Made by a program: the position numbers and the translations under genes. A stretch of 58,547 nt of DNA from a phage. The DNA lies in the NCBI GenBank assembly GCA_027568095.1, contig GCA_027568095.1_4956.1; one strand, given 5' to 3'. The notes beneath the pieces were generated by a model. The model was not told the origin of the DNA. It ran no database searches and was given only the letters and a program-made list of their open reading frames with translations. Positions 1 to 58,123 of this stretch are shown here, one piece after another (the stretch's first letter is position 1; each line of letters starts with the position of its first letter).

Positions 1-58
1 CTGCTCGTGCTGCTGATGCTGACATTAACAAACTGTTGGTGAAACTTTTCACTGAATA
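1..58 (+). CDS. 3' end of an ORF running off the window start (hypothetical; ...INKLLVKLFTE)
   Basis: Open frame from window edge to TAA at 56-58; next gene RBS follows. Confidence 0.2.
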
Positions 59-80
59 AAAATACTGGAGCGCGTGAAAC

Positions 81-263
81 ATGGGTGATAAACCAACTCT
101 GACACCGTGGCGGATCCGTTTAAATGGTGATGATATTAGAACCATTTACGCTTATCAGGATAAACCACGAAATTTAGCACTGGGGCAATACGCGCAATTA
201 TTCATGTTATCGTCCTGGCAGATTGTGCAACGCGCACTGGAAAAGATTAAAAGAGGTTATTAG
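81..263 (+). CDS. hypothetical small early protein (60 aa)
   Basis: ORF with GGAG about 10 nt upstream of ATG; tightly packed plus-strand array. Confidence 0.4.
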   Translation: MGDKPTLTPWRIRLNGDDIRTIYAYQDKPRNLALGQYAQLFMLSSWQIVQRALEKIKRGY

Positions 264-266
264 GTT

Positions 267-452
267 ATGTTTGATTACAGAAGTATGACCATATTTGAAT
301 GTTTAAATCTATTGGTAGCAACTGACCGTCCTGTACTTTGCGATGCAGATGAACAATGTGCGTATATTGGTGAGCTTGAGGAGGATGATATAACCATTGG
401 GGGAGGTGAATTTTTGCACCAGGTCATGGGGTCAAATAATGAATGTATATGA
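267..452 (+). CDS. hypothetical small acidic protein (61 aa)
   Basis: ORF with AGAGG RBS; 3-nt gap from upstream stop. Confidence 0.4.
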   Translation: MFDYRSMTIFECLNLLVATDRPVLCDADEQCAYIGELEEDDITIGGGEFLHQVMGSNNECI

Positions 453-756
453 TAATCAAAACATGTGGTTTATCCGCAAACCTACTTGTAGTGATAAATA
501 TAAAGCTCTTGATGTCCATCATTATATTGAACAATATGAGATTATAAATAAAACACCAAAAGGTTGGCGTGTTAAATGTCGTTACAGCGATAAAGGTCGT
601 GTGTTACTTAAAAACTCTTATCACTGTTTTTGTTCTGAAAAAGACGCGCTAGAATTCCTCGCAAATGAGGCCAACAACATGGCGGCGTTGTTAGATGAAC
701 GCAAATTAACATATGTTCGTCTATTGTGTGATTGTCGTGATGCGTTAAAAAGGTGA
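439..756 (+). CDS. hypothetical protein (about 105 aa)
   Basis: First ATG at 439 overlaps upstream stop; track ORF 397.. uses a TTG. Confidence 0.4.
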   Translation: MNVYDNQNMWFIRKPTCSDKYKALDVHHYIEQYEIINKTPKGWRVKCRYSDKGRVLLKNSYHCFCSEKDALEFLANEANNMAALLDERKLTYVRLLCDCRDALKR

Positions 757-763
757 TCGAACA

Positions 764-910
764 ATGAAACGCGCTATCATCAGCATTACAATTATTACAC
801 TTGTAATATACATGTTCAATATATCAACTAAGGAAAACATCGAAAAATTACGTTTAATTGCTACTATTAGTATGATTTCTTATTTGATAAACATGTGGCA
901 ATCAAAATAA
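764..910 (+). CDS. small hydrophobic membrane peptide (48 aa, below track cutoff)
   Basis: AAGGTGA RBS 7 nt upstream of ATG 764; predicted TM stretch IISITIITLVIYMF. Confidence 0.35.
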   Translation: MKRAIISITIITLVIYMFNISTKENIEKLRLIATISMISYLINMWQSK

Positions 911-1191
911 TGTGGAACATTTGTCATAAATCCGGGCGTGTACTGTTCACCACAAATGATGAACGGACCGCTATGAATCGTGCTAAATATGGGTGGAGGG
1001 TTAAAAAAGTGGATGAACATTTTGAAGTAGGTGAGATTTGGTTGTCACCTCGTGGTTATTTCTACAAAGTGGTTGATGTACAAAATAACCATGCGATTTT
1101 AAAAATGGGTACTCACGGATTAGGTAGAAAGATTAAACGTCGCAAGAATGCTACTAAAAACTGGCAGTTACATGTGGAGACATTGAAATGA
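895..1191 (+). CDS. hypothetical protein
   Basis: Track ORF (GTG start; alternative ATG at 910); weak RBS. Confidence 0.35.
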   Translation: MAIKIMWNICHKSGRVLFTTNDERTAMNRAKYGWRVKKVDEHFEVGEIWLSPRGYFYKVVDVQNNHAILKMGTHGLGRKIKRRKNATKNWQLHVETLK

Positions 1192-1283
1192 GTTTGCTTG
1201 GTTTAGTTAGTGCATTTGTAGTCGGTGTGGTAGCTGGAGCAATGTTAATGGTGTTGATTGTTGTACTGGCAATGCGAACTTAG
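1188..1283 (+). CDS. small single-TM hydrophobic peptide (31 aa)
   Basis: ATGA start/stop overlap with upstream gene; sequence MSLLGLVSAFVVGVVAGAMLMVLIVVLAMRT. Confidence 0.35.
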   Translation: MSLLGLVSAFVVGVVAGAMLMVLIVVLAMRT

Positions 1284-1409
1284 TTGGGAAAGGTGAAAAG
1301 TCAGTCGTTAACAACGTACCAGCCGAAACCCCTGTTAAATTATCGTAAATCCTATACCATCTTCACCAGTTCCACACTACCCTGAAATTATCAAACAGGA
1401 GTGTGGAAC

Positions 1410-1616
1410 ATGTTCAGATACGTTTTAAAATTACTCGCCATCATTGTAACCTGGCTAATCATACAATCCGGGTATGACCTTCGTGTTCGTAACCAATGCT
1501 CAGACTATCAACGCATTACACGAACTGCGACAATCTACAGTCACGGTATTTGTTACGCCGCAGATAGTGACGGTCAGTTTAAAATAATTCTTGACGGTTT
1601 ACACATTATCAGATAG
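1410..1616 (+). CDS. small membrane protein (68 aa)
   Basis: CAGGAG RBS 8 nt upstream of ATG 1410; N-terminal hydrophobic helix. Confidence 0.45.
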   Translation: MFRYVLKLLAIIVTWLIIQSGYDLRVRNQCSDYQRITRTATIYSHGICYAADSDGQFKIILDGLHIIR

Positions 1617-1651
1617 ACTTCAGTTTGTGTAAAACAACTGGAGTTATCACC

Positions 1652-1918
1652 ATGTTTAAAACTGGTCAACACGTAGAAATCACCAGTCCACGACTGTTAG
1701 AAATTCTCGCACGTCGCAAATCTCAACCGTTCGGTACTGTTGTAGCGGTCGATCCGCAAGCTGAATACCCGGTTAAAATTCGCATCATTGATGATACAGG
1801 GTTTCAAATCCCCTTCACGTTCGACGGTGAGCAGTGTGATTACACTTTCTCATTTACCATGAATGGTCATCATGACCATCGTAGCCTGACACCTGATTTA
1901 AAAGTGGTGAACGTATGA
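1652..1918 (+). CDS. hypothetical protein (88 aa)
   Basis: CTGGAG RBS 8 nt upstream of ATG 1652. Confidence 0.5.
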   Translation: MFKTGQHVEITSPRLLEILARRKSQPFGTVVAVDPQAEYPVKIRIIDDTGFQIPFTFDGEQCDYTFSFTMNGHHDHRSLTPDLKVVNV

Positions 1919-2070
1919 TTCTTGATTACGCAATTAAATTGTTAAGTTCCACTAACACTTTATGGAGTGTTCCACAACAACGAATCATTACTTACCGTAA
2001 ACAACAGCATCATAAAACAGGTATTGCAAAAGCCCGACGCGAGGCGAAGAAAAGAAGGAACAGGAAATGA
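1915..2070 (+). CDS. small basic protein (51 aa)
   Basis: ATGA overlaps with both neighbours (translational coupling); Lys/Arg-rich C-terminus. Confidence 0.4.
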   Translation: MILDYAIKLLSSTNTLWSVPQQRIITYRKQQHHKTGIAKARREAKKRRNRK

Positions 2071-2264
2071 CTGTGCACGAATCCGTGATTAAACAACAAG
2101 CAATTGAACAAGTATTGAAAGATTTAAAAATACTGAACGACGCCAGGTTAATAGCGGCGCGTTATGGTCACTGTCATATTCAGGTTGATTATAACGGTGC
2201 TGTTAAAATTGTAGAAGTCAAAGATTTAGTTGCTGAATATATTAAAAATGAAGGTGGTGTATGA
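2067..2264 (+). CDS. hypothetical protein (65 aa)
   Basis: GGAACAGGAA RBS; ATGA overlap with upstream ORF. Confidence 0.5.
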   Translation: MTVHESVIKQQAIEQVLKDLKILNDARLIAARYGHCHIQVDYNGAVKIVEVKDLVAEYIKNEGGV

Positions 2265-2458
2265 AACTAACAGAAGCACAAGATTATCAGCGTAGAATTT
2301 TAGATCTCATTAAACAGTTAAACCGCACGATACACGAAGCCTCAATCGTCGGAATTAATGTTGAACTTGATTTATACGAAGAACAAAAACTAAGTGGTGT
2401 AAACACTGTTGTTCTTGACGGAAAAGTTACCATCAAACCACAGGACATTGAACTATGA
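2261..2458 (+). CDS. hypothetical protein (65 aa)
   Basis: GGTGGTG RBS; ATGA overlap with upstream ORF. Confidence 0.5.
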   Translation: MKLTEAQDYQRRILDLIKQLNRTIHEASIVGINVELDLYEEQKLSGVNTVVLDGKVTIKPQDIEL

Positions 2459-3145
2459 ACTTCTTTAAAAACGCTATTATTTATCGTCTGACTAACACGA
2501 TGGCATTAATGGCCCAGTTACCAACGCTGGAAGACAGTCTGTGTGCGTTTCAATTCATGTGGTTCACAGGATATGGCGCGTACTGGATGGATTCCGGCAA
2601 CTGAACAACATCATACACTGGTTCACCAGGCTAACGGGTTGATCGTGGTTGATGCGTCTAGTGCTAAACGGGCTGAAGATGCGTTAGCGCTGTTGCGTAA
2701 ATCCTTGAGTAGTCTGCCTGTAGTCCCACTGACAACTGAAAACCCTGTTGAACTGACAACAACGGAGTGGGTACGTTCAGGAAACGCGCCAACAGGTTTT
2801 ACAATGGGTGACGCTGCTGAACTGAAAGCAGTCCTGACTGACGGCGGTGTTGCACGCGTTAAAAAACAGGATTTAACCAGTGATGAAATAGCCACACATA
2901 TTGAAGCCGGGAAAGTCGTTACAAAACTGGCGATGGACTGGCAGCAGCGGGTAACGTTTACGCTAACTGACAGCATGACGTTAAACCGTGTGAAATTCTG
3001 CGACGAACTGATGTGCCAGAACGACGATGTTGACCTTGAAGACAGTCTGGTACGATTCGACGCTGATTTTGTACTGATGACAGGTGAACTTTCAATGCTG
3101 ATTAAACAACTTATCACTGCTTTGGGTGGGGAGGCTAAACGATGA
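2455..3145 (+). CDS. rdgC: RdgC-like recombination-associated protein, reading frame interrupted by a 1-nt shift near 2540-2545
   Basis: N-terminus [13 protein letters not shown] in frame A from ATG 2455 (resembles the RdgC N-terminus as recalled); [11 protein letters not shown]...[28 protein letters not shown] in frame +1 (track ORF 2543..3145); frames join if one nt is removed in the TGTGTG tract. Confidence 0.5.
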
Positions 3146-3477
3146 AAACAGAACAGGAACGTATTATTCAGTGGTTATGCTCTGGTGAAACTGGTCTGAG
3201 TTCTAAAACGATGGTCTGCATTCACACAGGTAACGAAATGGGTGGTGAATGGGGATTTCGTGCGCCACAAGATGTTGCTGATTTTCGCCGTTGCTGGTTC
3301 CTGGTTGAAGCTGTACCGGAAATCAGAAACAGTTTTCCATTGATTGCTGAAAAGTGTCCGGCGTTTAAAGGCGTGATTGAAAACTGGGATGTTATTAGCG
3401 CAGCTTATGAACGTGAACGCGGATCCGGTAAATGTCCTGAAACGTATCGGTTACTGAAAGAAGCGTTGGGCGAATAA
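3142..3477 (+). CDS. hypothetical protein (111 aa)
   Basis: GGGGAGG RBS; ATGA overlap with upstream gene. Confidence 0.5.
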
Positions 3478-3486
3478 TGAGCATTA

Positions 3487-3510
3487 CCCCGGGTTAACCC
3501 GGGGTTTTTA
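3487..3510 (+). terminator. intrinsic terminator (CCCCGGG-TTAAC-CCCGGGG + T5)
   Basis: GC stem 7 bp followed by TTTTT immediately after stop of 3142..3477. Confidence 0.6.
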
Positions 3511-3524
3511 ACACGAGGGTAATA

Positions 3525-3728
3525 ATGATTGTTAAGTGTTCAGGTTTTACAAAAATTGCAGACCGTTACCGCGAACTATTTACGGTGGGTAAATGTTATC
3601 TGGTAGACCAAAAGTCTGAAAAAGTTTTCGACGACAACAGAAAACCACAACCATTCGATTTTGAAAAATTAGCTGTCAACGGTACACCCGGAATATACGT
3701 TCACTTCCAGAATATCGCCCGGAATTAA
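3525..3728 (+). CDS. hypothetical protein (67 aa)
   Basis: GAGGG RBS; stop codon lies in loop of a GCCCGG/CCGGGC hairpin. Confidence 0.45.
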   Translation: MIVKCSGFTKIADRYRELFTVGKCYLVDQKSEKVFDDNRKPQPFDFEKLAVNGTPGIYVHFQNIARN

Positions 3729-3826
3729 CCGGGCTTTCTAAAACGCTCTCTGACGAACTTAACACCCTACCCTGTACCATCGCACCACCCGACCCTGTTT
3801 ATCAAAAAAGCAAACGGTTTCCGGCG

Positions 3827-4462
3827 TTATTTAAGTGCCTTCTGATACAGTTGCGCGATGTCGTCGATAGTTGCACCTTCAGGAACACTCTGAACCACGT
3901 TTCCAACCACACCAGACAATTCCACACGGTCGATACTGTTCCCGGTGATCTTATCCAGTTGTTCAGACGCTTTTGCACGAGTTTTCGGGTCGAACAGTTC
4001 ACGTGTCACCAGAATGTATCCGCCCAGCATGTAACGTTTGTAGCAAACTACGTACTGTTGCAGATGACTGGGGATATCGTCGGTACTGTTCACCCACAGG
4101 TGTTTCGCTTCTGTGTCGTCTTCACCAGGAACGATTACGCGCTGACAATACGGTTCCAGTAATTCTTCAGCAGTGCTTGCTGCTCGTTTCCACCACTCGA
4201 CACGACTCGTTAACGATTCCCCGACAGACTCAAGCGCATGACTTCCCATCGCGTCCAGATAGTTCAACACCTTCGTATTCGACAGGAGACGGTGCGCGGT
4301 CGTTGCAGCCGCTGCGTCAGATGTGTGACCCGGATAAGCCTCTAAAACGCATCGCGTATTGCTGAACCCGTTATTGACACGATCTAACCACAGGTTGGCG
4401 AATTTGAGCTGTTCCGGCGACAACTCCAGAGCAGCCCTTTTAGCCCGGTCTGAAATTTTCAT
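3827..4462 (-). CDS. terminase small subunit-like protein (Terminase_2-type HTH motif)
   Basis: LSPEQLKFANLWL...GFSNTRCVLEAYPGHTSDAAAATTAHRLLSNTKVLNYL resembles the TerS HTH pattern; GGAG RBS 8 nt upstream of ATG 4462. Confidence 0.45.
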   Translation of the reverse strand: MKISDRAKRAALELSPEQLKFANLWLDRVNNGFSNTRCVLEAYPGHTSDAAAATTAHRLLSNTKVLNYLDAMGSHALESVGESLTSRVEWWKRAASTAEELLEPYCQRVIVPGEDDTEAKHLWVNSTDDIPSHLQQYVVCYKRYMLGGYILVTRELFDPKTRAKASEQLDKITGNSIDRVELSGVVGNVVQSVPEGATIDDIAQLYQKALK

Positions 4463-4960
4463 AAATTTGTCTCCCATAAATTTTAAATTAGTTTCCCACA
4501 GATACCCACGGGTTGTCTACACGCCCTGTTTTACAGCTAATACGATGTTAGTATTAAGTTTATAACCTGTCATGGTTTATAAACACATAATCCCAACAAT
4601 TTCAAAGACTTGCATAAAAACATAGATTACAATAGGTATCTCCCAGACTTTTATTTTAGCTCTATTTACAGCTTACACTACTCTAGTATTATCTCTATCT
4701 TTCTATACTACTTCTTATTTATATCTATGTTTTCTATGTTATCTATAAAAAGATAATAAAAAGAATAAGATAGAGAGGGGTTGGTTAAAAAATAAACATG
4801 ACGAAATCTATACCAATCTATGATTTTGATACTATGACAGGATTAACTGTAACACTAATACTATCATAGTGTTCTATCTTAGTATTAGCAGTTTGCGAGC
4901 AATCCTATGATAGTCAGTCGTTCTACCATAGGACTAGCTGTAACACTATGACAGGATTAC

Positions 4961-9778: not shown

Positions 9779-10141
9779 TTATTTTAAGAAGTTGGTCAGC
9801 GGTTCGAAACGTTTTATACAATCAGCAGGTACATAATCAGTGATTGACTCCCACGAAAAACGACCGGGTTTATGTTGTAAATTAGTAGCGTTTATAACAG
9901 CAACACACCATTCATCAACAGAACCACGATAACCCATTATTGATATAGCCTCAACAGGATTAAAGGTAATGAACACGGGGTGGAAACCGTATAAATTATC
10001 ATAACCACAGGAACGGATGGGAACACCTAACCCACGTTGAAAATCAAGATCACCACGAAGAAGTTTTATCCCCGGTACGATACCTTTCATCAGGATACTT
10101 TCACGGTTTTCCACTTTAGTAATATGATACGCATCAACCAT
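9779..10141 (-). CDS. hypothetical protein (120 aa)
   Basis: ORF start overlaps stop of upstream SLOG-like gene. Confidence 0.45.
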   Translation of the reverse strand: MVDAYHITKVENRESILMKGIVPGIKLLRGDLDFQRGLGVPIRSCGYDNLYGFHPVFITFNPVEAISIMGYRGSVDEWCVAVINATNLQHKPGRFSWESITDYVPADCIKRFEPLTNFLK

Positions 10142-10530
10142 ACGGAACCCACACAGTTAAACCAGCTTTTAACATGCGACGGTGCATATCAGCAGTACCA
10201 CGCCCACCGGGGAACACAACACCGTATGTAGGGCGTGGTTCACCCTCTAACATCGCCTGATTACGTTGATGACCTGCAACAGCGTTATAAGGCCCGTGCT
10301 TACCTTGTTTTACAACCGCACCTGGTACAGTCAGATCATCCCACGCTGCCGGGCAACTACGCACAGGAATACTGTGTAACTGCGCCCATTGCTTACACAG
10401 GTTATCAACACCTGACGCACCACCTTCAATTAGTTCGGTAATGGGGGAATTGTTTGTGAAGTAGTCCTAACGCGGAAAATACTGCTGTTCTGTCGTTGAA
10501 GTCACGACCACCTGTAACGACTATTATCAT
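10134..10530 (-). pseudogene. SLOG/DUF2493-like Rossmann-fold protein interrupted by a frameshift in a C5/G5 tract (10443-10447)
   Basis: ATG 10530 (ATGA overlap with MTase-like stop) gives MIIVVTGGRDFNDRTAVFSALGLLHKQFP then stop; +1 frame continues ITELIEGGASGVDNLCKQWAQ...FPGGRGTADMHRRMLKAGLTVWV. Confidence 0.5.
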
Positions 10531-18550: not shown

Positions 18551-19695
18551 TGACCAGTCACGCTACCTTTAGTGCCAGTGGATCAAAACGTTGGTTAGCT
18601 TGTCCGGGTAGCGTTCAACTGTCACAGCGGATTGACTATGTAGAACCATCATCACCCAGTGCTGAAGAAGGTACAGCCGGACACTGGGTGTTAGAACAGA
18701 AGATTAAAGGCAAACCGCCATTAATGCCGTGTCTTGCTCCTAACGGTGTTCAGGTTACTGAAGACATGCATATTTACGCGGATGACTTTATAGCAGATGT
18801 TCTTTCAGTTGGTGCGAAACTTGATCCGCTGTTTTCAGAAGTTCGCATTCACATTGACTGGTTGTTACCCGGTCAGTACGGAACCTGTGATTATCGCTGG
18901 TATGACTTTAATACTGATACGCTTTATGTATGGGATTATAAATACGGTCATGTTGCAGTTGAAGCAGTTGATAATTCACAGGGGGTCTATTACGCACTGG
19001 ACCAACGTTGCATCGACACCGTTAAGCGCGTTGTGTTCACAATTGTTCAGCCACGGGCTTATCACCCACTCGGACCTGTAAGACGATGGGAGTTTAACCG
19101 GGCAACATTGATGGAATGGGCTGAACGATTTAAACACGGGTTTAACGAAGCACATAAACCAGACGCACCGTTAAATGTTGGTAGTCATTGTCATTACTGT
19201 CCGGCGCGTGGTATGTGTCCGGCGATGTATGAGAGGATTTTAGAATTGGCTACTGTTCTTGATGCACCACCATCACTTACGCCAGAAGAAGTAGCGCGTC
19301 GTCTGGCACTTCTTGAAGAACTGTATACGCGTTCTTCTGAAGCAAAAACAGCGTTACATACTCAGGGGTTACATTTCGTACGTATGGGTAAAGCTTTACC
19401 GGGTTTTAAACTTGCAACAAAGCAAACCAGACGTCAGCTTACGGACGAAGGAAAACTGATCGGTGCTGCACCTATGTTTGGTGTAAACCCTGAAACATTG
19501 TACGAACGTAAATTAAAACCATTGTTAACACTGGAAAAATCACTGCCTCCGGCACTTGTTGACATGTGTACGACAAAACCAGAAGGTCAGCCAGTTTTAG
19601 TACCTGACAGTGACCCGCGTAAAGGTCATAGCACACTGGCAGAATCTGTTTTTAATAAACCCGTGACGATGCCGACTGGCGCACGTCCACTTTAA
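18550..19695 (+). CDS. PD-(D/E)xK nuclease with C-terminal Cys cluster (Cas4/RecB-like)
   Basis: 381 aa; N-terminal WLACPGS and C-terminal HCHYCPARGMCPAMY cysteine cluster. Confidence 0.5.
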   Translation: MTSHATFSASGSKRWLACPGSVQLSQRIDYVEPSSPSAEEGTAGHWVLEQKIKGKPPLMPCLAPNGVQVTEDMHIYADDFIADVLSVGAKLDPLFSEVRIHIDWLLPGQYGTCDYRWYDFNTDTLYVWDYKYGHVAVEAVDNSQGVYYALDQRCIDTVKRVVFTIVQPRAYHPLGPVRRWEFNRATLMEWAERFKHGFNEAHKPDAPLNVGSHCHYCPARGMCPAMYERILELATVLDAPPSLTPEEVARRLALLEELYTRSSEAKTALHTQGLHFVRMGKALPGFKLATKQTRRQLTDEGKLIGAAPMFGVNPETLYERKLKPLLTLEKSLPPALVDMCTTKPEGQPVLVPDSDPRKGHSTLAESVFNKPVTMPTGARPL

Positions 19696-25617: not shown

Positions 25618-25934
25618 TTACTCCCGGTTTTACGTTGTTCCGCTTTCAAACCTTCAATAACAACTTTCAGGTCATTTGTTGACTGTGTTAGTTCTTTAAC
25701 ACTGGTGAGAATTTCAGCATTCTGTGTGGCTTGATATTCGATTTTGATATCGTGAACATCAACACGAGATTCAACACGCTTTGCCAGATTAAGAGCCTCA
25801 TGCGCATAAGTTTTTGCATCTGCAATATCTTTTTCGTTAGAATTGATTTGGTTTTGGGTTACCCCATAACCTACCAAACCTGTAGCTACAAATGCTATTA
25901 CAGGCCAATACCTTAATAATGAGTTATCAGACAT
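25614..25934 (-). CDS. lysis-associated membrane protein (holin/antiholin candidate)
   Basis: N-terminal TM WPVIAFVATGLVGYGV followed by coiled coil; first gene of lysis cassette. Confidence 0.4.
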   Translation of the reverse strand: MSDNSLLRYWPVIAFVATGLVGYGVTQNQINSNEKDIADAKTYAHEALNLAKRVESRVDVHDIKIEYQATQNAEILTSVKELTQSTNDLKVVIEGLKAEQRKTGSK

Positions 25935-25960
25935 TGTTCTACACTCCAGGAGACTTAAAG

Positions 25961-28279
25961 ATGGCTAACTGTAATGATTATATCAGTGCTGATGATTTGA
26001 AAACAGGCAAACAAGCGATTTTACATATTGAACACGTTGCAAAAAGTCGTGATGCGAACGGTAATCACTCTGCTGAAGTTACTGATGAAATCCGAGGTGA
26101 ACAAATCACAAACCCCACATTAGACGGTTTTTTCTCATCCATCACTCTTAAACCTGTAGATGGTTCTTTTGAAGACGGTGGGGTTTTAAGACATCGTTGG
26201 GAAACTTTATTATATAAAACGAATCGTTCATTTTATCAATGGTTAGGTGATCTGCCAAAAACAGTACCTGCAGGCAGTAGTCCATTTGATGAATCCGGGC
26301 AGTTAATCATGGGGTGGCGAGATGCTACTGATTTATCTCAGGCTGCTGTAAATAAAAACACATATAAACCGTTATTCATTCACAAAGAAACCGGATCCTT
26401 TACATCCGGGGGTAAAGCTATAAGTAAGATATCAGCACTATATAACCCACAGGATGAAATGTATTACACGCCTAAAACAGGTTCTGTTACCGTACTGCCG
26501 GGTTCAGTTCCAGATTCATCCTGGGTTTGTGTTGGTATCCTGGGGAGATATGAAATTGGTGATTTGCGAAACTTCAAAGCTGTTGGCGATGGTGTGTCTA
26601 TAGATACGCAATCTTTTATATTAGCAATGACATGTGCAAACTTTTTTAAAAATCGGGTGATCGTTCCTGGTGGGTATACGTTTGTTTGTGACAAGATGCA
26701 ATTCAGCAACATCAACAATGTGACAATCGAGGGAACCGGGTGTATCAAAATGATCAGCGAGCGTACAGGTGCTTTTTACTATGCTGATGGTGCCCAGATT
26801 ACATTTATCAACAGCTCAAATGTTAAAATCATTGGTATCGAATTTGACGGTAACAGGTCTGGATCGCCTCAATATACAGGTTTCAACCACGGTATACAGT
26901 TTGTCACGGGTACTGGTGATTTCCGTTCAAATAATGGCGGTGACGTAAAGAAAAATAAAAATATTTATATTAGTAAATGTCGTTTCCACGATCAGGGTAG
27001 TTATAATTCTGGTATAGATAAATTCGGTGACGGAATTTATCTATTTGGGTGTGATGGGGTTGTGATTGAAAATAACGAATTTGTTGATATTGGTCGTTGG
27101 GGTGTTGCTTCCTCAGATTGTTTCAATGTTCGAATTATCAATAATTATCACAATTGCTCTAAAATAGGAACAGTTGCATTAGGTTTTGTTGATATTGAAA
27201 ACGAATCAACAGATAACACAAATGGTTCATACTCTCACAATATCGTAATTTCTGGAAATACGATATGCGGTTTTGGTCAAATTCTTGTTAGTGGTGGTAA
27301 CAATAGTGAAAACAATCTTGGTGCTAAACATTACCTTAGAAACGTGACTATCACCGGAAACTCACTTCTTATTGAGTCAAACACCCATGAGACCGCGTCG
27401 TATATGACAAACCTTGTGTTTATTGGTGTTGCTCCTTTCTGTAATGTTGTGCCAACAACGTCGGCACAGGCTATCGACAACTCGAATATCGTTATCTCAA
27501 ATAATACGCTCAAATGTTATATCCCATCTAATTTGTCGATTGGTACAGGCATTAGTGGACAAGGAACCGGTTTTTCATCAGGTATATTCAATACTGTTAA
27601 CGGTGTGGTAATTAAAAACAATACCATTTTTGGTTTCGAAAAAGGTATACAGGCTGAATCACCAATTGTTTCAACGGGTTATACATTTACAAACGTACTT
27701 ATTGCCAATAATACGATTGATTGTAATGGTCTAACAAACTCCATTGGGATCCGAACTGCATCAACACAGCTTGTAGGTGTCAGCATTCAATCTAATATTA
27801 TCAGGAACGCCGTAACACGAGGTATTTCTGTTGAAGATGGTCGTGAAATCGGCGCAATAGATAGTTATGTTATGATTTCAGACAATGAAGTTTATTCCAA
27901 TATAGGCACAAATTATTTTGCAAATATCTACCGTGCAAGTTTCCAAGGTAATGGCTCCCGAGGTGGAGCGCTGGTTCTCGACGCCACAGTAACCAACATG
28001 GATAAAGATTACGGCAATACCTGGAACCATATTTTACGTGAAATAAATGGTTTTACTGTTAACAGTATGTCTCAAATAACACAGGATGCAATCGATATTG
28101 GGTCACAAACCAGATTCGGTTACACAGTACAACTTATACCGCCATTTAATCTTGAAGGTGCTCAGTCATCAGCAATGGTAACTGGCCCCGGACTAGCCAG
28201 GGCATTTATTACAAATATGTCAGGTTCCCCCGTAACTAAAGCTACTGATATATGGCATATGGTCGTTGAGAAACATTAA
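25961..28279 (+). CDS. tail fiber/tailspike with parallel beta-helix-like repeats
   Basis: ATG 25961 with CCAGGAGA RBS; about 770 aa; recurring N/G/I-rich repeats. Confidence 0.5.
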   Translation: MANCNDYISADDLKTGKQAILHIEHVAKSRDANGNHSAEVTDEIRGEQITNPTLDGFFSSITLKPVDGSFEDGGVLRHRWETLLYKTNRSFYQWLGDLPKTVPAGSSPFDESGQLIMGWRDATDLSQAAVNKNTYKPLFIHKETGSFTSGGKAISKISALYNPQDEMYYTPKTGSVTVLPGSVPDSSWVCVGILGRYEIGDLRNFKAVGDGVSIDTQSFILAMTCANFFKNRVIVPGGYTFVCDKMQFSNINNVTIEGTGCIKMISERTGAFYYADGAQITFINSSNVKIIGIEFDGNRSGSPQYTGFNHGIQFVTGTGDFRSNNGGDVKKNKNIYISKCRFHDQGSYNSGIDKFGDGIYLFGCDGVVIENNEFVDIGRWGVASSDCFNVRIINNYHNCSKIGTVALGFVDIENESTDNTNGSYSHNIVISGNTICGFGQILVSGGNNSENNLGAKHYLRNVTITGNSLLIESNTHETASYMTNLVFIGVAPFCNVVPTTSAQAIDNSNIVISNNTLKCYIPSNLSIGTGISGQGTGFSSGIFNTVNGVVIKNNTIFGFEKGIQAESPIVSTGYTFTNVLIANNTIDCNGLTNSIGIRTASTQLVGVSIQSNIIRNAVTRGISVEDGREIGAIDSYVMISDNEVYSNIGTNYFANIYRASFQGNGSRGGALVLDATVTNMDKDYGNTWNHILREINGFTVNSMSQITQDAIDIGSQTRFGYTVQLIPPFNLEGAQSSAMVTGPGLARAFITNMSGSPVTKATDIWHMVVEKH

Positions 28280-43642: not shown

Positions 43643-43941
43643 GAATTATTTTACGTATAGATTCATGGGAAGTATGCGACTCCCTATACCTTTTAAACCT
43701 CTCCTACTTGCAGCAACTTTTACTACTTATACTACTCTTCTGTTTATCTATGTTTATTATGTTTTCTATAAAAAGAATAAGATAGAGAGGGGTTGGTTAA
43801 AAAATAAACATGACGAAATCTATGAATTTATGATCTACTAATACAGATTCAGTATTAGCTGTAACTCAAAATCATGAAACCCATGTAAAACCATGTACAG
43901 TTAGTACACGTTCTGTATTAGCTGTATCTTTAAAATAATTC

Positions 43942-56353: not shown

Positions 56354-58123
56354 TTAAAAAATGTCACCATATTCAGGAGTACCAACAGGATTCACACCAC
56401 CAGTAAATGGTTCTTCGACAAATTCAGTGCGTTTTGGTGATAGTGCAATAACCGCAGCATCGAAAAAGTTTGGCGATTTACTCCCATTTGGTTTCTTGTC
56501 AATCACAATCTTCCCGGCACCGTTACTTGTATACGTTGGCTGGCTTAACTCAGCTTCTAACCGTTGTGCATTTTCCAGTGACGGATCAATCAGAATGATT
56601 TCGTCTGGATCCTGTGGTTGACCTTCCACATACCATTTATAAATACGCTGACAGCGCAGACGTAACGCCCATGATGCCTGCGCTTTATAATTTGAAAAAT
56701 AATCTTTGTTTGATTTACGGTCTTTGTCACCAGGTTTTGTACCACCGATAATATCACCACCCGGATCCACAACTTTTCCATTCGGTAACCACGGGCGCAC
56801 ACGGAAGCGTAAAGTATCTTTACGGTCGTTTGCCGCTACTTTAACGCCTGTACCAACACCGTTAACTTCGTACCAATATTCATCAACACCCAGCATATTA
56901 GCCATCGTCAACATTCCTGGTGCAGCCAGTTCAGCGCCCCTGTGGTCAAGCTGTAGATGTGTCAGGAATACACCGTGAGCAATTACCAGTGCACTTGCAT
57001 CTTCACCACCGTCTGCGGCATCCTGTCCGGCGATACGTTGACCTGTTGGTGTAAGTAGTCCGTTAGCTTTGCGCCATTCTGTGTCACGGAAAGCGTCAAA
57101 AGCAGCACGTACCCATTCAGCTTTAATCAGTACACCCTGAACAGCAGCGGCATAGTCGCGATCGACTTCCTGTGCGAAAATATGCTGTAAACCTTTTTCA
57201 GCGAACGATTGTTTTTCTCGCTTATACCATTCGTCATCTTTAGCCGGGTGATCACGCCAGTCAAGAACCATTACACGCAATTTACCACGGGGTAATTTCT
57301 TGCCCGGTTCCCATTCCAGACCAGCTTTACGGTTGCGATAAAAAACGTTACCAACACCGTTAACCGAACTGATATCAATACGAACGTTGGTGTTAGCTGA
57401 CAACGACGCTTCAATCAGTTCAGGACGATCTACGTGTGCTGCCTCGTCGAGAAAATAGACAGATTTACGACCACCACGACCGATGTTATCGCCAGCTTCA
57501 CCAGTAATTGTTGCACCGTTTTCAGGGTTTATACATTTCATGTAAACCAGATGGTCTTTTTCACGCAGACCGACCGGGCGTAATTCCGGTGGTAATGCGC
57601 GGATAATCTGGCGAATCTTTTCAAAAATACTATCCGGGTCGCCCAGTTTATCAACAAGCTGCTCTTTACGTGATCCCCAGCCAACTGAAGAACCGGGACG
57701 ATACAGCCACGCCCACACGGACAAACCACAGGCTACCCAGGTTGCGCCATAATCTCGCGATTTTTCCCAAAGTCCCTTCTCTTTGTCTTCAAGCGCTTCA
57801 TAAACAAACTGAACCATGTCGATCTGACGTTCGAAAAGGCAGAAAGGCATGTTAGGCGGGTATTCAGTACCAACGTTACGCGGGTCATAAGTAAACGCCC
57901 AGTCGAGAATGAATGCCACCGGGTTTGTTTCGTAATACTTTTTCAGTACTGGGACAATTGCCCGATCCGTGCGCATACGATTTAACAGGTTAATGCGGTC
58001 AATGTAACACTGTTTGTAATCCGGGCGTGGCTGACCTTTTCGCCAGATACGTTCGTCGTTTGCGTAGGCATCACGCCAGCGCGGGTAATTATGAATATTT
58101 CCAGTAAACTTATTCATGATCAT
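56354..58123 (-). CDS. terL: terminase large subunit
   Basis: 589 aa; YFLDEAAH Walker B-like segment; position upstream of portal. Confidence 0.6.
   Translation of the reverse strand: MIMNKFTGNIHNYPRWRDAYANDERIWRKGQPRPDYKQCYIDRINLLNRMRTDRAIVPVLKKYYETNPVAFILDWAFTYDPRNVGTEYPPNMPFCLFERQIDMVQFVYEALEDKEKGLWEKSRDYGATWVACGLSVWAWLYRPGSSVGWGSRKEQLVDKLGDPDSIFEKIRQIIRALPPELRPVGLREKDHLVYMKCINPENGATITGEAGDNIGRGGRKSVYFLDEAAHVDRPELIEASLSANTNVRIDISSVNGVGNVFYRNRKAGLEWEPGKKLPRGKLRVMVLDWRDHPAKDDEWYKREKQSFAEKGLQHIFAQEVDRDYAAAVQGVLIKAEWVRAAFDAFRDTEWRKANGLLTPTGQRIAGQDAADGGEDASALVIAHGVFLTHLQLDHRGAELAAPGMLTMANMLGVDEYWYEVNGVGTGVKVAANDRKDTLRFRVRPWLPNGKVVDPGGDIIGGTKPGDKDRKSNKDYFSNYKAQASWALRLRCQRIYKWYVEGQPQDPDEIILIDPSLENAQRLEAELSQPTYTSNGAGKIVIDKKPNGSKSPNFFDAAVIALSPKRTEFVEEPFTGGVNPVGTPEYGDIF

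Follow-up and report, generated by a model that had tools for sequence, protein, structure and literature searches.

The window analysed here is a stretch of phage DNA of 58,547 nucleotides (GenBank assembly GCA_027568095.1, contig GCA_027568095.1_4956.1), and it belongs to a siphophage of the Sashavirus/Nonanavirus type. Positions 2455-3145 hold a homolog of rdgC. The gene sits tightly between two neighbours: its ATG overlaps the stop of the gene upstream in the letters ATGA, and its own stop overlaps the start of the gene downstream, again as ATGA. The coordinates of the locus are collected in Table 1.

Table 1 Features of the rdgC locus, in positions of the window. AVIO78A is a related E. 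coli siphophage.
Feature	Position	Strand	Remarks and basis
rdgC, whole locus (very probably a pseudogene)	2455-3145	+	691 nt (relatives: 915 nt)
N-terminal rdgC remnant in the native frame, codons 1-34	2455..2556	+	tblastn, Pfam profile match, DNA alignment
ORF from the native start ATG, 49 aa	2455..2604	+	ORF list and sequence
Junction of the 5-bp deletion, cause of the frameshift	2555..2558	+	DNA alignments; blastn gives a 5-nt deletion at ~2555
Remainder of rdgC in the native frame, to the stop	2558..3145	+	tblastn, Pfam, alignment
GTG-start ORF, 200 aa, in the next frame relative to the ATG 2455 ORF	2543..3145	+	ORF list
Junction of the 219-bp deletion, sole remaining copy of the 8-mer CTAACGGG	2631..2638	+	DNA alignments and 8-mer repeat table
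Upstream gene, 65 aa, translationally coupled to the rdgC start	2261..2458	+	ORF list; homolog AVIO78A_006 in the same position
Downstream conserved gene, 111 aa, rdgC operon	3142..3477	+	ORF list; homolog AVIO78A_004 in the same position

There is no single uninterrupted reading frame of about 300 amino acids that spans the RdgC profile. What is found is a 49-aa ORF and a 200-aa ORF in different frames. The short one consists of 34 native residues followed by 15 out-of-frame residues, and ends at a TGA at 2602-2604. The long one starts with five residues (MRFNS) that are likewise outside the native rdgC frame. From 2558 onwards the native frame encodes C37-G63 fused directly to L137-R304 in AVIO78A numbering, and then the stop.

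That both pieces descend from one gene is clear from profile and protein searches. The long ORF matches the Pfam family RdgC (PF04381) with E = 1.3e-65 and 222 bits, where the gathering score that serves as cut-off is 25; its best stretch covers profile positions 131-298 of 298, and there is a second stretch. The 49-aa ORF has a weak match to positions 2-32 (E = 0.0087). In tblastn, residues 1-34 of the AVIO78A RdgC match 2455-2556 in frame 1 with 94% identity, and residues 28-63 and 135-304 match frame 2. For residues 64-134 the same search gives no counterpart in the window. The strong profile match of the long ORF should be read as a sign of descent from rdgC, not of function.

A preliminary description of this DNA, made from its letters, had already proposed that an RdgC homolog is divided between two frames, and this is borne out by the Pfam and tblastn matches. 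The ORFs that it gave, ATG 2455..2604 with 49 aa and GTG 2543..3145 with 200 aa, agree with both the sequence and the ORF list. It had also left room for phage homologs that naturally lack the N-terminal segment. That segment is normal in this family: all 11 intact relatives start with MNFFKNAI(I/V)YRL, and are 304-305 aa long.

These relatives are close ones. The rdgC region is 92-94% identical to that of the E. coli siphophages AVIO78A, PJ16, BDX09P1 and KarinMuster_Bas82, and 82-87% identical to that of the Salmonella phages Sergei, Solent and SP-062/SP069 (Sashavirus/Nonanavirus). All of these carry an uninterrupted gene of 915-918 nt at the same position in the operon. Its product is annotated as 'exonuclease', 'recombination-associated protein' or 'RdgC exonuclease'. 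Over the 691 nt that the window retains, nucleotide identity is 90-94% to the E. coli-phage relatives and 80-81% to Sergei and SP-062. AVIO78A_005, PJ16_006, Bas82_0099, Sergei gp07 and the 'RdgC exonuclease' of SP-062 share not only the operon position but also the small-ORF neighbours. The difference is that their copies are whole, whereas the copy in the window has two deletions that these relatives do not have. In total, rdgC was extracted from 12 related sequences, and it is intact in 11 of the 12.

The intact phage protein aligns end-to-end with E. coli RdgC (PDB 2OWL; E = 3e-128, 66% identity), and also with the P. aeruginosa protein (PDB 2OWY). Homology to these cellular proteins is thus clear, and it makes it possible to express what is missing in terms of known structures.

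The gene in the window falls 224 nt short (915 - 691), which is exactly 5 + 219. At the site of the frameshift, TCAATTCAATCCATG of the intact relatives has become TCAATTCATG in the window. The exact position of the missing 5 bp is ambiguous over a 2-nt CA microhomology within 2555-2558. The effect is that the frame is lost after codon 34. From the alignments, this event is best described as a simple deletion with a 2-nt (CA) microhomology. Slippage on the near-tandem TCAAT/TCAAT was considered as another route to the same loss; removal of one unit would give TCAATCCATG, and this is not the TCAATTCATG that is observed. The break had earlier been placed in the TGTGTG tract at 2540-2545, as an indel of one nucleotide. 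That tract is identical in AVIO78A, PJ16 and two further relatives discussed below (L010 and L009), and so is not the lesion.

The second lesion is larger and leaves the frame as it is. Here 219 bp, or 73 codons, are missing, with the junction within CTAACGGG. In the intact rdgC of AVIO78A this 8-mer occurs twice, at nt 182 and nt 401, as a perfect direct repeat with a spacing of exactly 219 nt. At the junction the flanking motifs HQANG-QYLL and ITNG-LIVVD fuse seamlessly. The preliminary description held that the rest of the protein was complete, with the expected spacing; this overlooked the junction at 2631-2638 and the 73 codons lost there.

A deletion between short direct repeats points to replication slippage or microhomology-mediated deletion as the probable mechanism. 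The repeat itself is unremarkable. Pairs of repeated 8-mers are frequent in intact rdgC, which has 23 of them, and CTAACGGG is merely the site where a deletion happened.

The structure of P. aeruginosa RdgC gives meaning to the missing segment. It consists of a centre domain (residues 1-73 and 121-167), a tip or finger (74-120) and a base domain (168-306), and it has two interfaces: interface A, the gate, to which tip and centre domain contribute around F120, and interface B, the horseshoe, formed by the base domains (PMC1885664). Substitution of F120 by S or T abolishes the in vivo function of RdgC, and a protein with a deleted finger (d77-115) loses circular-DNA binding and loading as well as in vivo function (Briggs et al., PMC2965237).

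In the alignment to E. coli RdgC, the 219-bp deletion corresponds to Q63-G135. Lost with it are strand beta4, R118, F120, the DNA-binding R122 and strand beta5. The finger (residues 74-120), which is required for circular-DNA loading, is deleted as a whole. The gate residues R118 and F120, whose necessity for function is known from published mutagenesis, are also gone, since the PRAF sequence at 117-120 lies inside the deleted segment. The base domain is intact in the remnant, and the horseshoe interface is kept: the 200-aa ORF retains an 18-residue motif with the equivalents of Q212, E218, H222 and K227.

Compared with E. coli RdgC, then, the copy in the window keeps the base domain and the horseshoe residues, but is frameshifted after codon 34 and is without the equivalents of 63-135. 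It resembles the mutant of Briggs et al. 2010 (d77-115, P76G, L116T; PMC2965237) in that the finger is absent. The natural deletion is larger than that of the mutant, however (63-135), and adds the loss of R118, F120 and two core beta strands, with a frameshift upstream.

Each of the two lesions alone should abolish the canonical functions of RdgC, which are ring closure and the loading on DNA that restrains RecA. With the finger, gate and N-terminal segments missing, the toroidal DNA-binding dimer that inhibits RecA strand exchange is predicted to be lost. Such a protein would be unable to close the toroidal dimer or to load on DNA in the way described for the known proteins (PMC1885664, PMC2965237). 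Given that finger and gate are both deleted, repair of the frame would not restore a working canonical RdgC. The idea that correcting a single base yields an intact protein therefore fails on the 73-codon deletion, which such a correction leaves in place.

The allele is private to one phage. The 200-aa product is present on a single contig, among ~208 members of the 90%-identity protein clusters. The cluster of the AVIO78A RdgC has 204 members at 90% identity, and among the 40 members listed nearly all are 304 aa. Searches for the 219-bp junction, with exact and with degenerate patterns, gave 0 matches in viral_contigs and 0 in metagenome_contigs. The 5-bp junction gave 0 matches in viral_contigs. 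The intact site, as positive control, was itself found in only 4 IMG/VR contigs, which makes for a small denominator, so that the clusters of ~208 members are the better one.

The sequences of other phages in the clade suggest that rdgC has been lost recurrently and independently. Phage Sasha (KX987158, record 1-4258) is without the whole ~3-kb module of small ORFs that contains rdgC. In Sasha the gene for the large terminase directly adjoins gp04; Sergei and the window have ~10 genes there. A 20-kb metagenome scaffold (L010; ENA ERZ28624984, SATO21-1 scaffold_272), present in both the ENA and the Logan assemblies, carries at 2415-3328 an rdgC that is frameshifted around codon 57 by an independent 1-nt deletion, GGTTCAC to GGTCAC.

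In a further related phage contig (L009; ENA ERZ15185033, NODE_152737, 347-932), 59 nt of rdgC are deleted exactly between the copies of another perfect 8-mer repeat, TGGTTCAC, which occurs at nt 111 and nt 170 of intact rdgC. With a coverage of 0.8x and a further frameshift, in an A-run, this contig is weak evidence for recurrent loss. Outside the clade, hrdC of phage P1, a member of the RdgC family, was found to be non-essential by CRISPRi (PMC10695390). Sasha, L010, L009 and P1 hrdC are all consistent with the tolerated loss of an accessory gene.

Substitutions hint at relaxed constraint, at low power. In the 691 retained columns the window has 1 private synonymous and 5 private nonsynonymous changes. 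The latter are P15T, G160S (in the conserved LRKSLGSLPVVPL motif), I201V, I267V and A274V. For L010 the numbers are 0 synonymous and 2 nonsynonymous, and for the 11 intact relatives pooled they are 42 and 36. There is a trend in the direction expected of a pseudogene, but the test has too little power: with the window by itself the Fisher p is 0.105, which is not significant, and with L010 included it is 0.058.

As to expression, the overlap of ATG 2455 with the upstream stop means that this start is probably still translated, which would yield the 49-aa peptide. The downstream gene has a strong Shine-Dalgarno sequence of its own, GGGGAGG (upstream sequence TTGGGTGGGGAGGCTAAACG), and should therefore not depend on translation of rdgC.

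Three other explanations of the locus can be considered. One is that the true phage rdgC is intact, and that both the frame break and the gap are errors of sequencing or assembly, a view implied by the proposal of the preliminary description to resequence the site. Errors of this kind do have a candidate elsewhere in the window, where one added base in a C5 run (~10444-10448) splits another small gene; homopolymer errors occur at sites of this type. Neither lesion of rdgC lies in a homopolymer, though, the 5-bp deletion included, and the 8-bp repeat that flanks the 219 bp is far too short to cause an assembly to collapse. Logan contig SRR12769694_395 (L005), 4794 nt long and from an independent assembly of SRA run SRR12769694, is moreover 100% identical to window positions 1-4785, with both lesions and both ORFs. 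This agreement rules out an artefact of one assembly. The contig possibly derives from the same read set as the window, and is thus compatible with a mutation acquired in laboratory propagation. A raw list of indels relative to AVIO78A is uninformative, as it is filled with compensating clusters of gaps in divergent and intergenic stretches, and a per-gene test of the frame (tblastn per ORF) was used instead. In this test all large genes are in one frame with ~100% coverage, among them those for TerL, the portal, the capsid, the tape measure, the tail tip, the DNA polymerase, the primase and the helicase; the only split genes in the window are rdgC and the small gene just mentioned, a homolog of AVIO78A_089. 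An artefact is accordingly very unlikely. We conclude that the DNA that was sequenced does contain the rdgC lesions, and both a natural and a laboratory origin are compatible with them.

The other two explanations accept the lesions and give the two ORFs a purpose. Programmed +1 ribosomal frameshifting could join them in their overlap at 2543-2604, which is 62 nt long and has the arrangement that a +1 shift requires. But all 11 intact relatives are single-frame, and the overlap derives from the private 5-bp deletion and is not conserved. Known +1 sites of the prfB type consist of CUU UGA with a Shine-Dalgarno sequence upstream. The overlap contains no known +1 slippery motif; in it, the codons of the ATG 2455 frame up to its stop are GGC AAC TGA. 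Even the joined product would lack the 73 residues of finger and gate, and we consider the chance that such frameshifting takes place close to negligible. Alternatively, a truncated product of 190-200 aa, started at GTG 2543, at ATG 2573 or by reinitiation, could be made and be functional. One possible form would be a fingerless half-ring that pairs with the RdgC of the host through the horseshoe interface, and so poisons it. It speaks for such a product that 200 codons are open up to the native stop, that the base domain is kept together with the interface-B motif (the equivalents of Q212, E218, H222 and K227), and that phage and host RdgC share 66% identity. An open frame is, however, the default expectation after a recent in-frame deletion. 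Inspection of the upstream sequence found no convincing, properly spaced Shine-Dalgarno before either start: GTG 2543 is preceded by GGAAGA alone, which ends 9 nt before it, and ATG 2573 has an AGGA only 1 nt upstream. Folding is doubtful with a centre domain that lacks beta1, alpha1, beta4 and beta5. The allele is furthermore confined to one sample, with 0 junction matches and one contig among the ~208 cluster members, and its private changes are mainly nonsynonymous, one of them in a conserved motif. A functional fragment is very improbable on these grounds. It is at least conceivable, and somewhat less probable again, that the fragment at 2558-3145 is expressed, acts as a dominant negative on host RdgC and thereby eases the restraint on RecA recombination, in which case the recurrent rdgC lesions of the clade would reflect selection and not neutral decay.

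Some further observations were made along the way. The homolog of AVIO78A_089 (131 aa, 'swarming motility protein') is on the minus strand at 10137-10530. Its residues 1-29 are in frame -3 with 100% identity, and residues 29-131 are in frame -1 with 97% identity. The break consists of one extra base, with CAATTTCCGATT in AVIO78A and CAATTCCCCCATT in the window. Either a genuine mutation or an error at the homopolymer would explain it.

The Logan contig reaches 9 nt (CTTATGCTG) past window position 1, and these do not match the last 9 nt of the window (GCTGCTGCT). That assembly thus does not end at position 1, and the window's two ends do not simply adjoin as they would in a circular junction. 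At its other side the contig ends within a direct repeat of ~140-150 nt, found in the window at ~4704-4853 and 43728-43865 with 78% identity. In AVIO78A the repeat matches 18782-18899 and also 57707-57811, at the right end of that genome. Possibly this is a repeated element with a regulatory or terminal role.

Lastly, the tail fibre AVIO78A_065 (688 aa) has a counterpart in the window, at 25934-26335, for its N-terminal 134 aa alone, with 71% identity; the remainder has been replaced. From the sequence, this looks like a swap of a host-range module.

Returning to rdgC, the reading we prefer is that 2455-3145 is a pseudogene, a phage accessory gene inactivated by two private deletions. We put the probability of this at roughly 90%. 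The 5-bp deletion at 2555-2558 shifts the frame, so that ribosomes from the coupled ATG 2455 stop at 2604. The 219 bp were lost between the copies of CTAACGGG, presumably through replication slippage or microhomology-mediated deletion. The loss of RdgC function would then have been tolerated through what we take to be the dispensability of the gene. What speaks against the pseudogene is that 200 open codons with an intact base domain may still allow a truncated product. On the whole this is the ordinary decay of a dispensable accessory gene.

RdgC-family genes in phages are not new. P1 hrdC is one case, and homologs are also known from lambdoid phages, with a structural likeness to RexA of phage lambda (PMC12315714). 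These are distant from the window in both sequence and context, and are set beside it by description; RexA is similar in fold only. The family, its presence in this group of phages and its dispensability were known already, and the biological weight of a copy that is simply broken is small. The preliminary description had hoped for an intact phage RdgC of biological meaning. This genome does not have one, and intact copies have already been annotated in related phages.

For annotation, the consequence is that 2455-3145 ought to carry the label of an rdgC pseudogene and its two deletions; neither an 'RdgC exonuclease' of 200 aa nor a one-base correction is appropriate.

Of lesser interest is that several members of the clade appear to have lost rdgC independently, through deletion of the stretch between 8-bp direct repeats or because the module as a whole is gone. 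Such a pattern singles rdgC out as an accessory gene of conditional use. It also means that these phages form natural pairs, with and without rdgC, in which to ask how RdgC benefits a phage.
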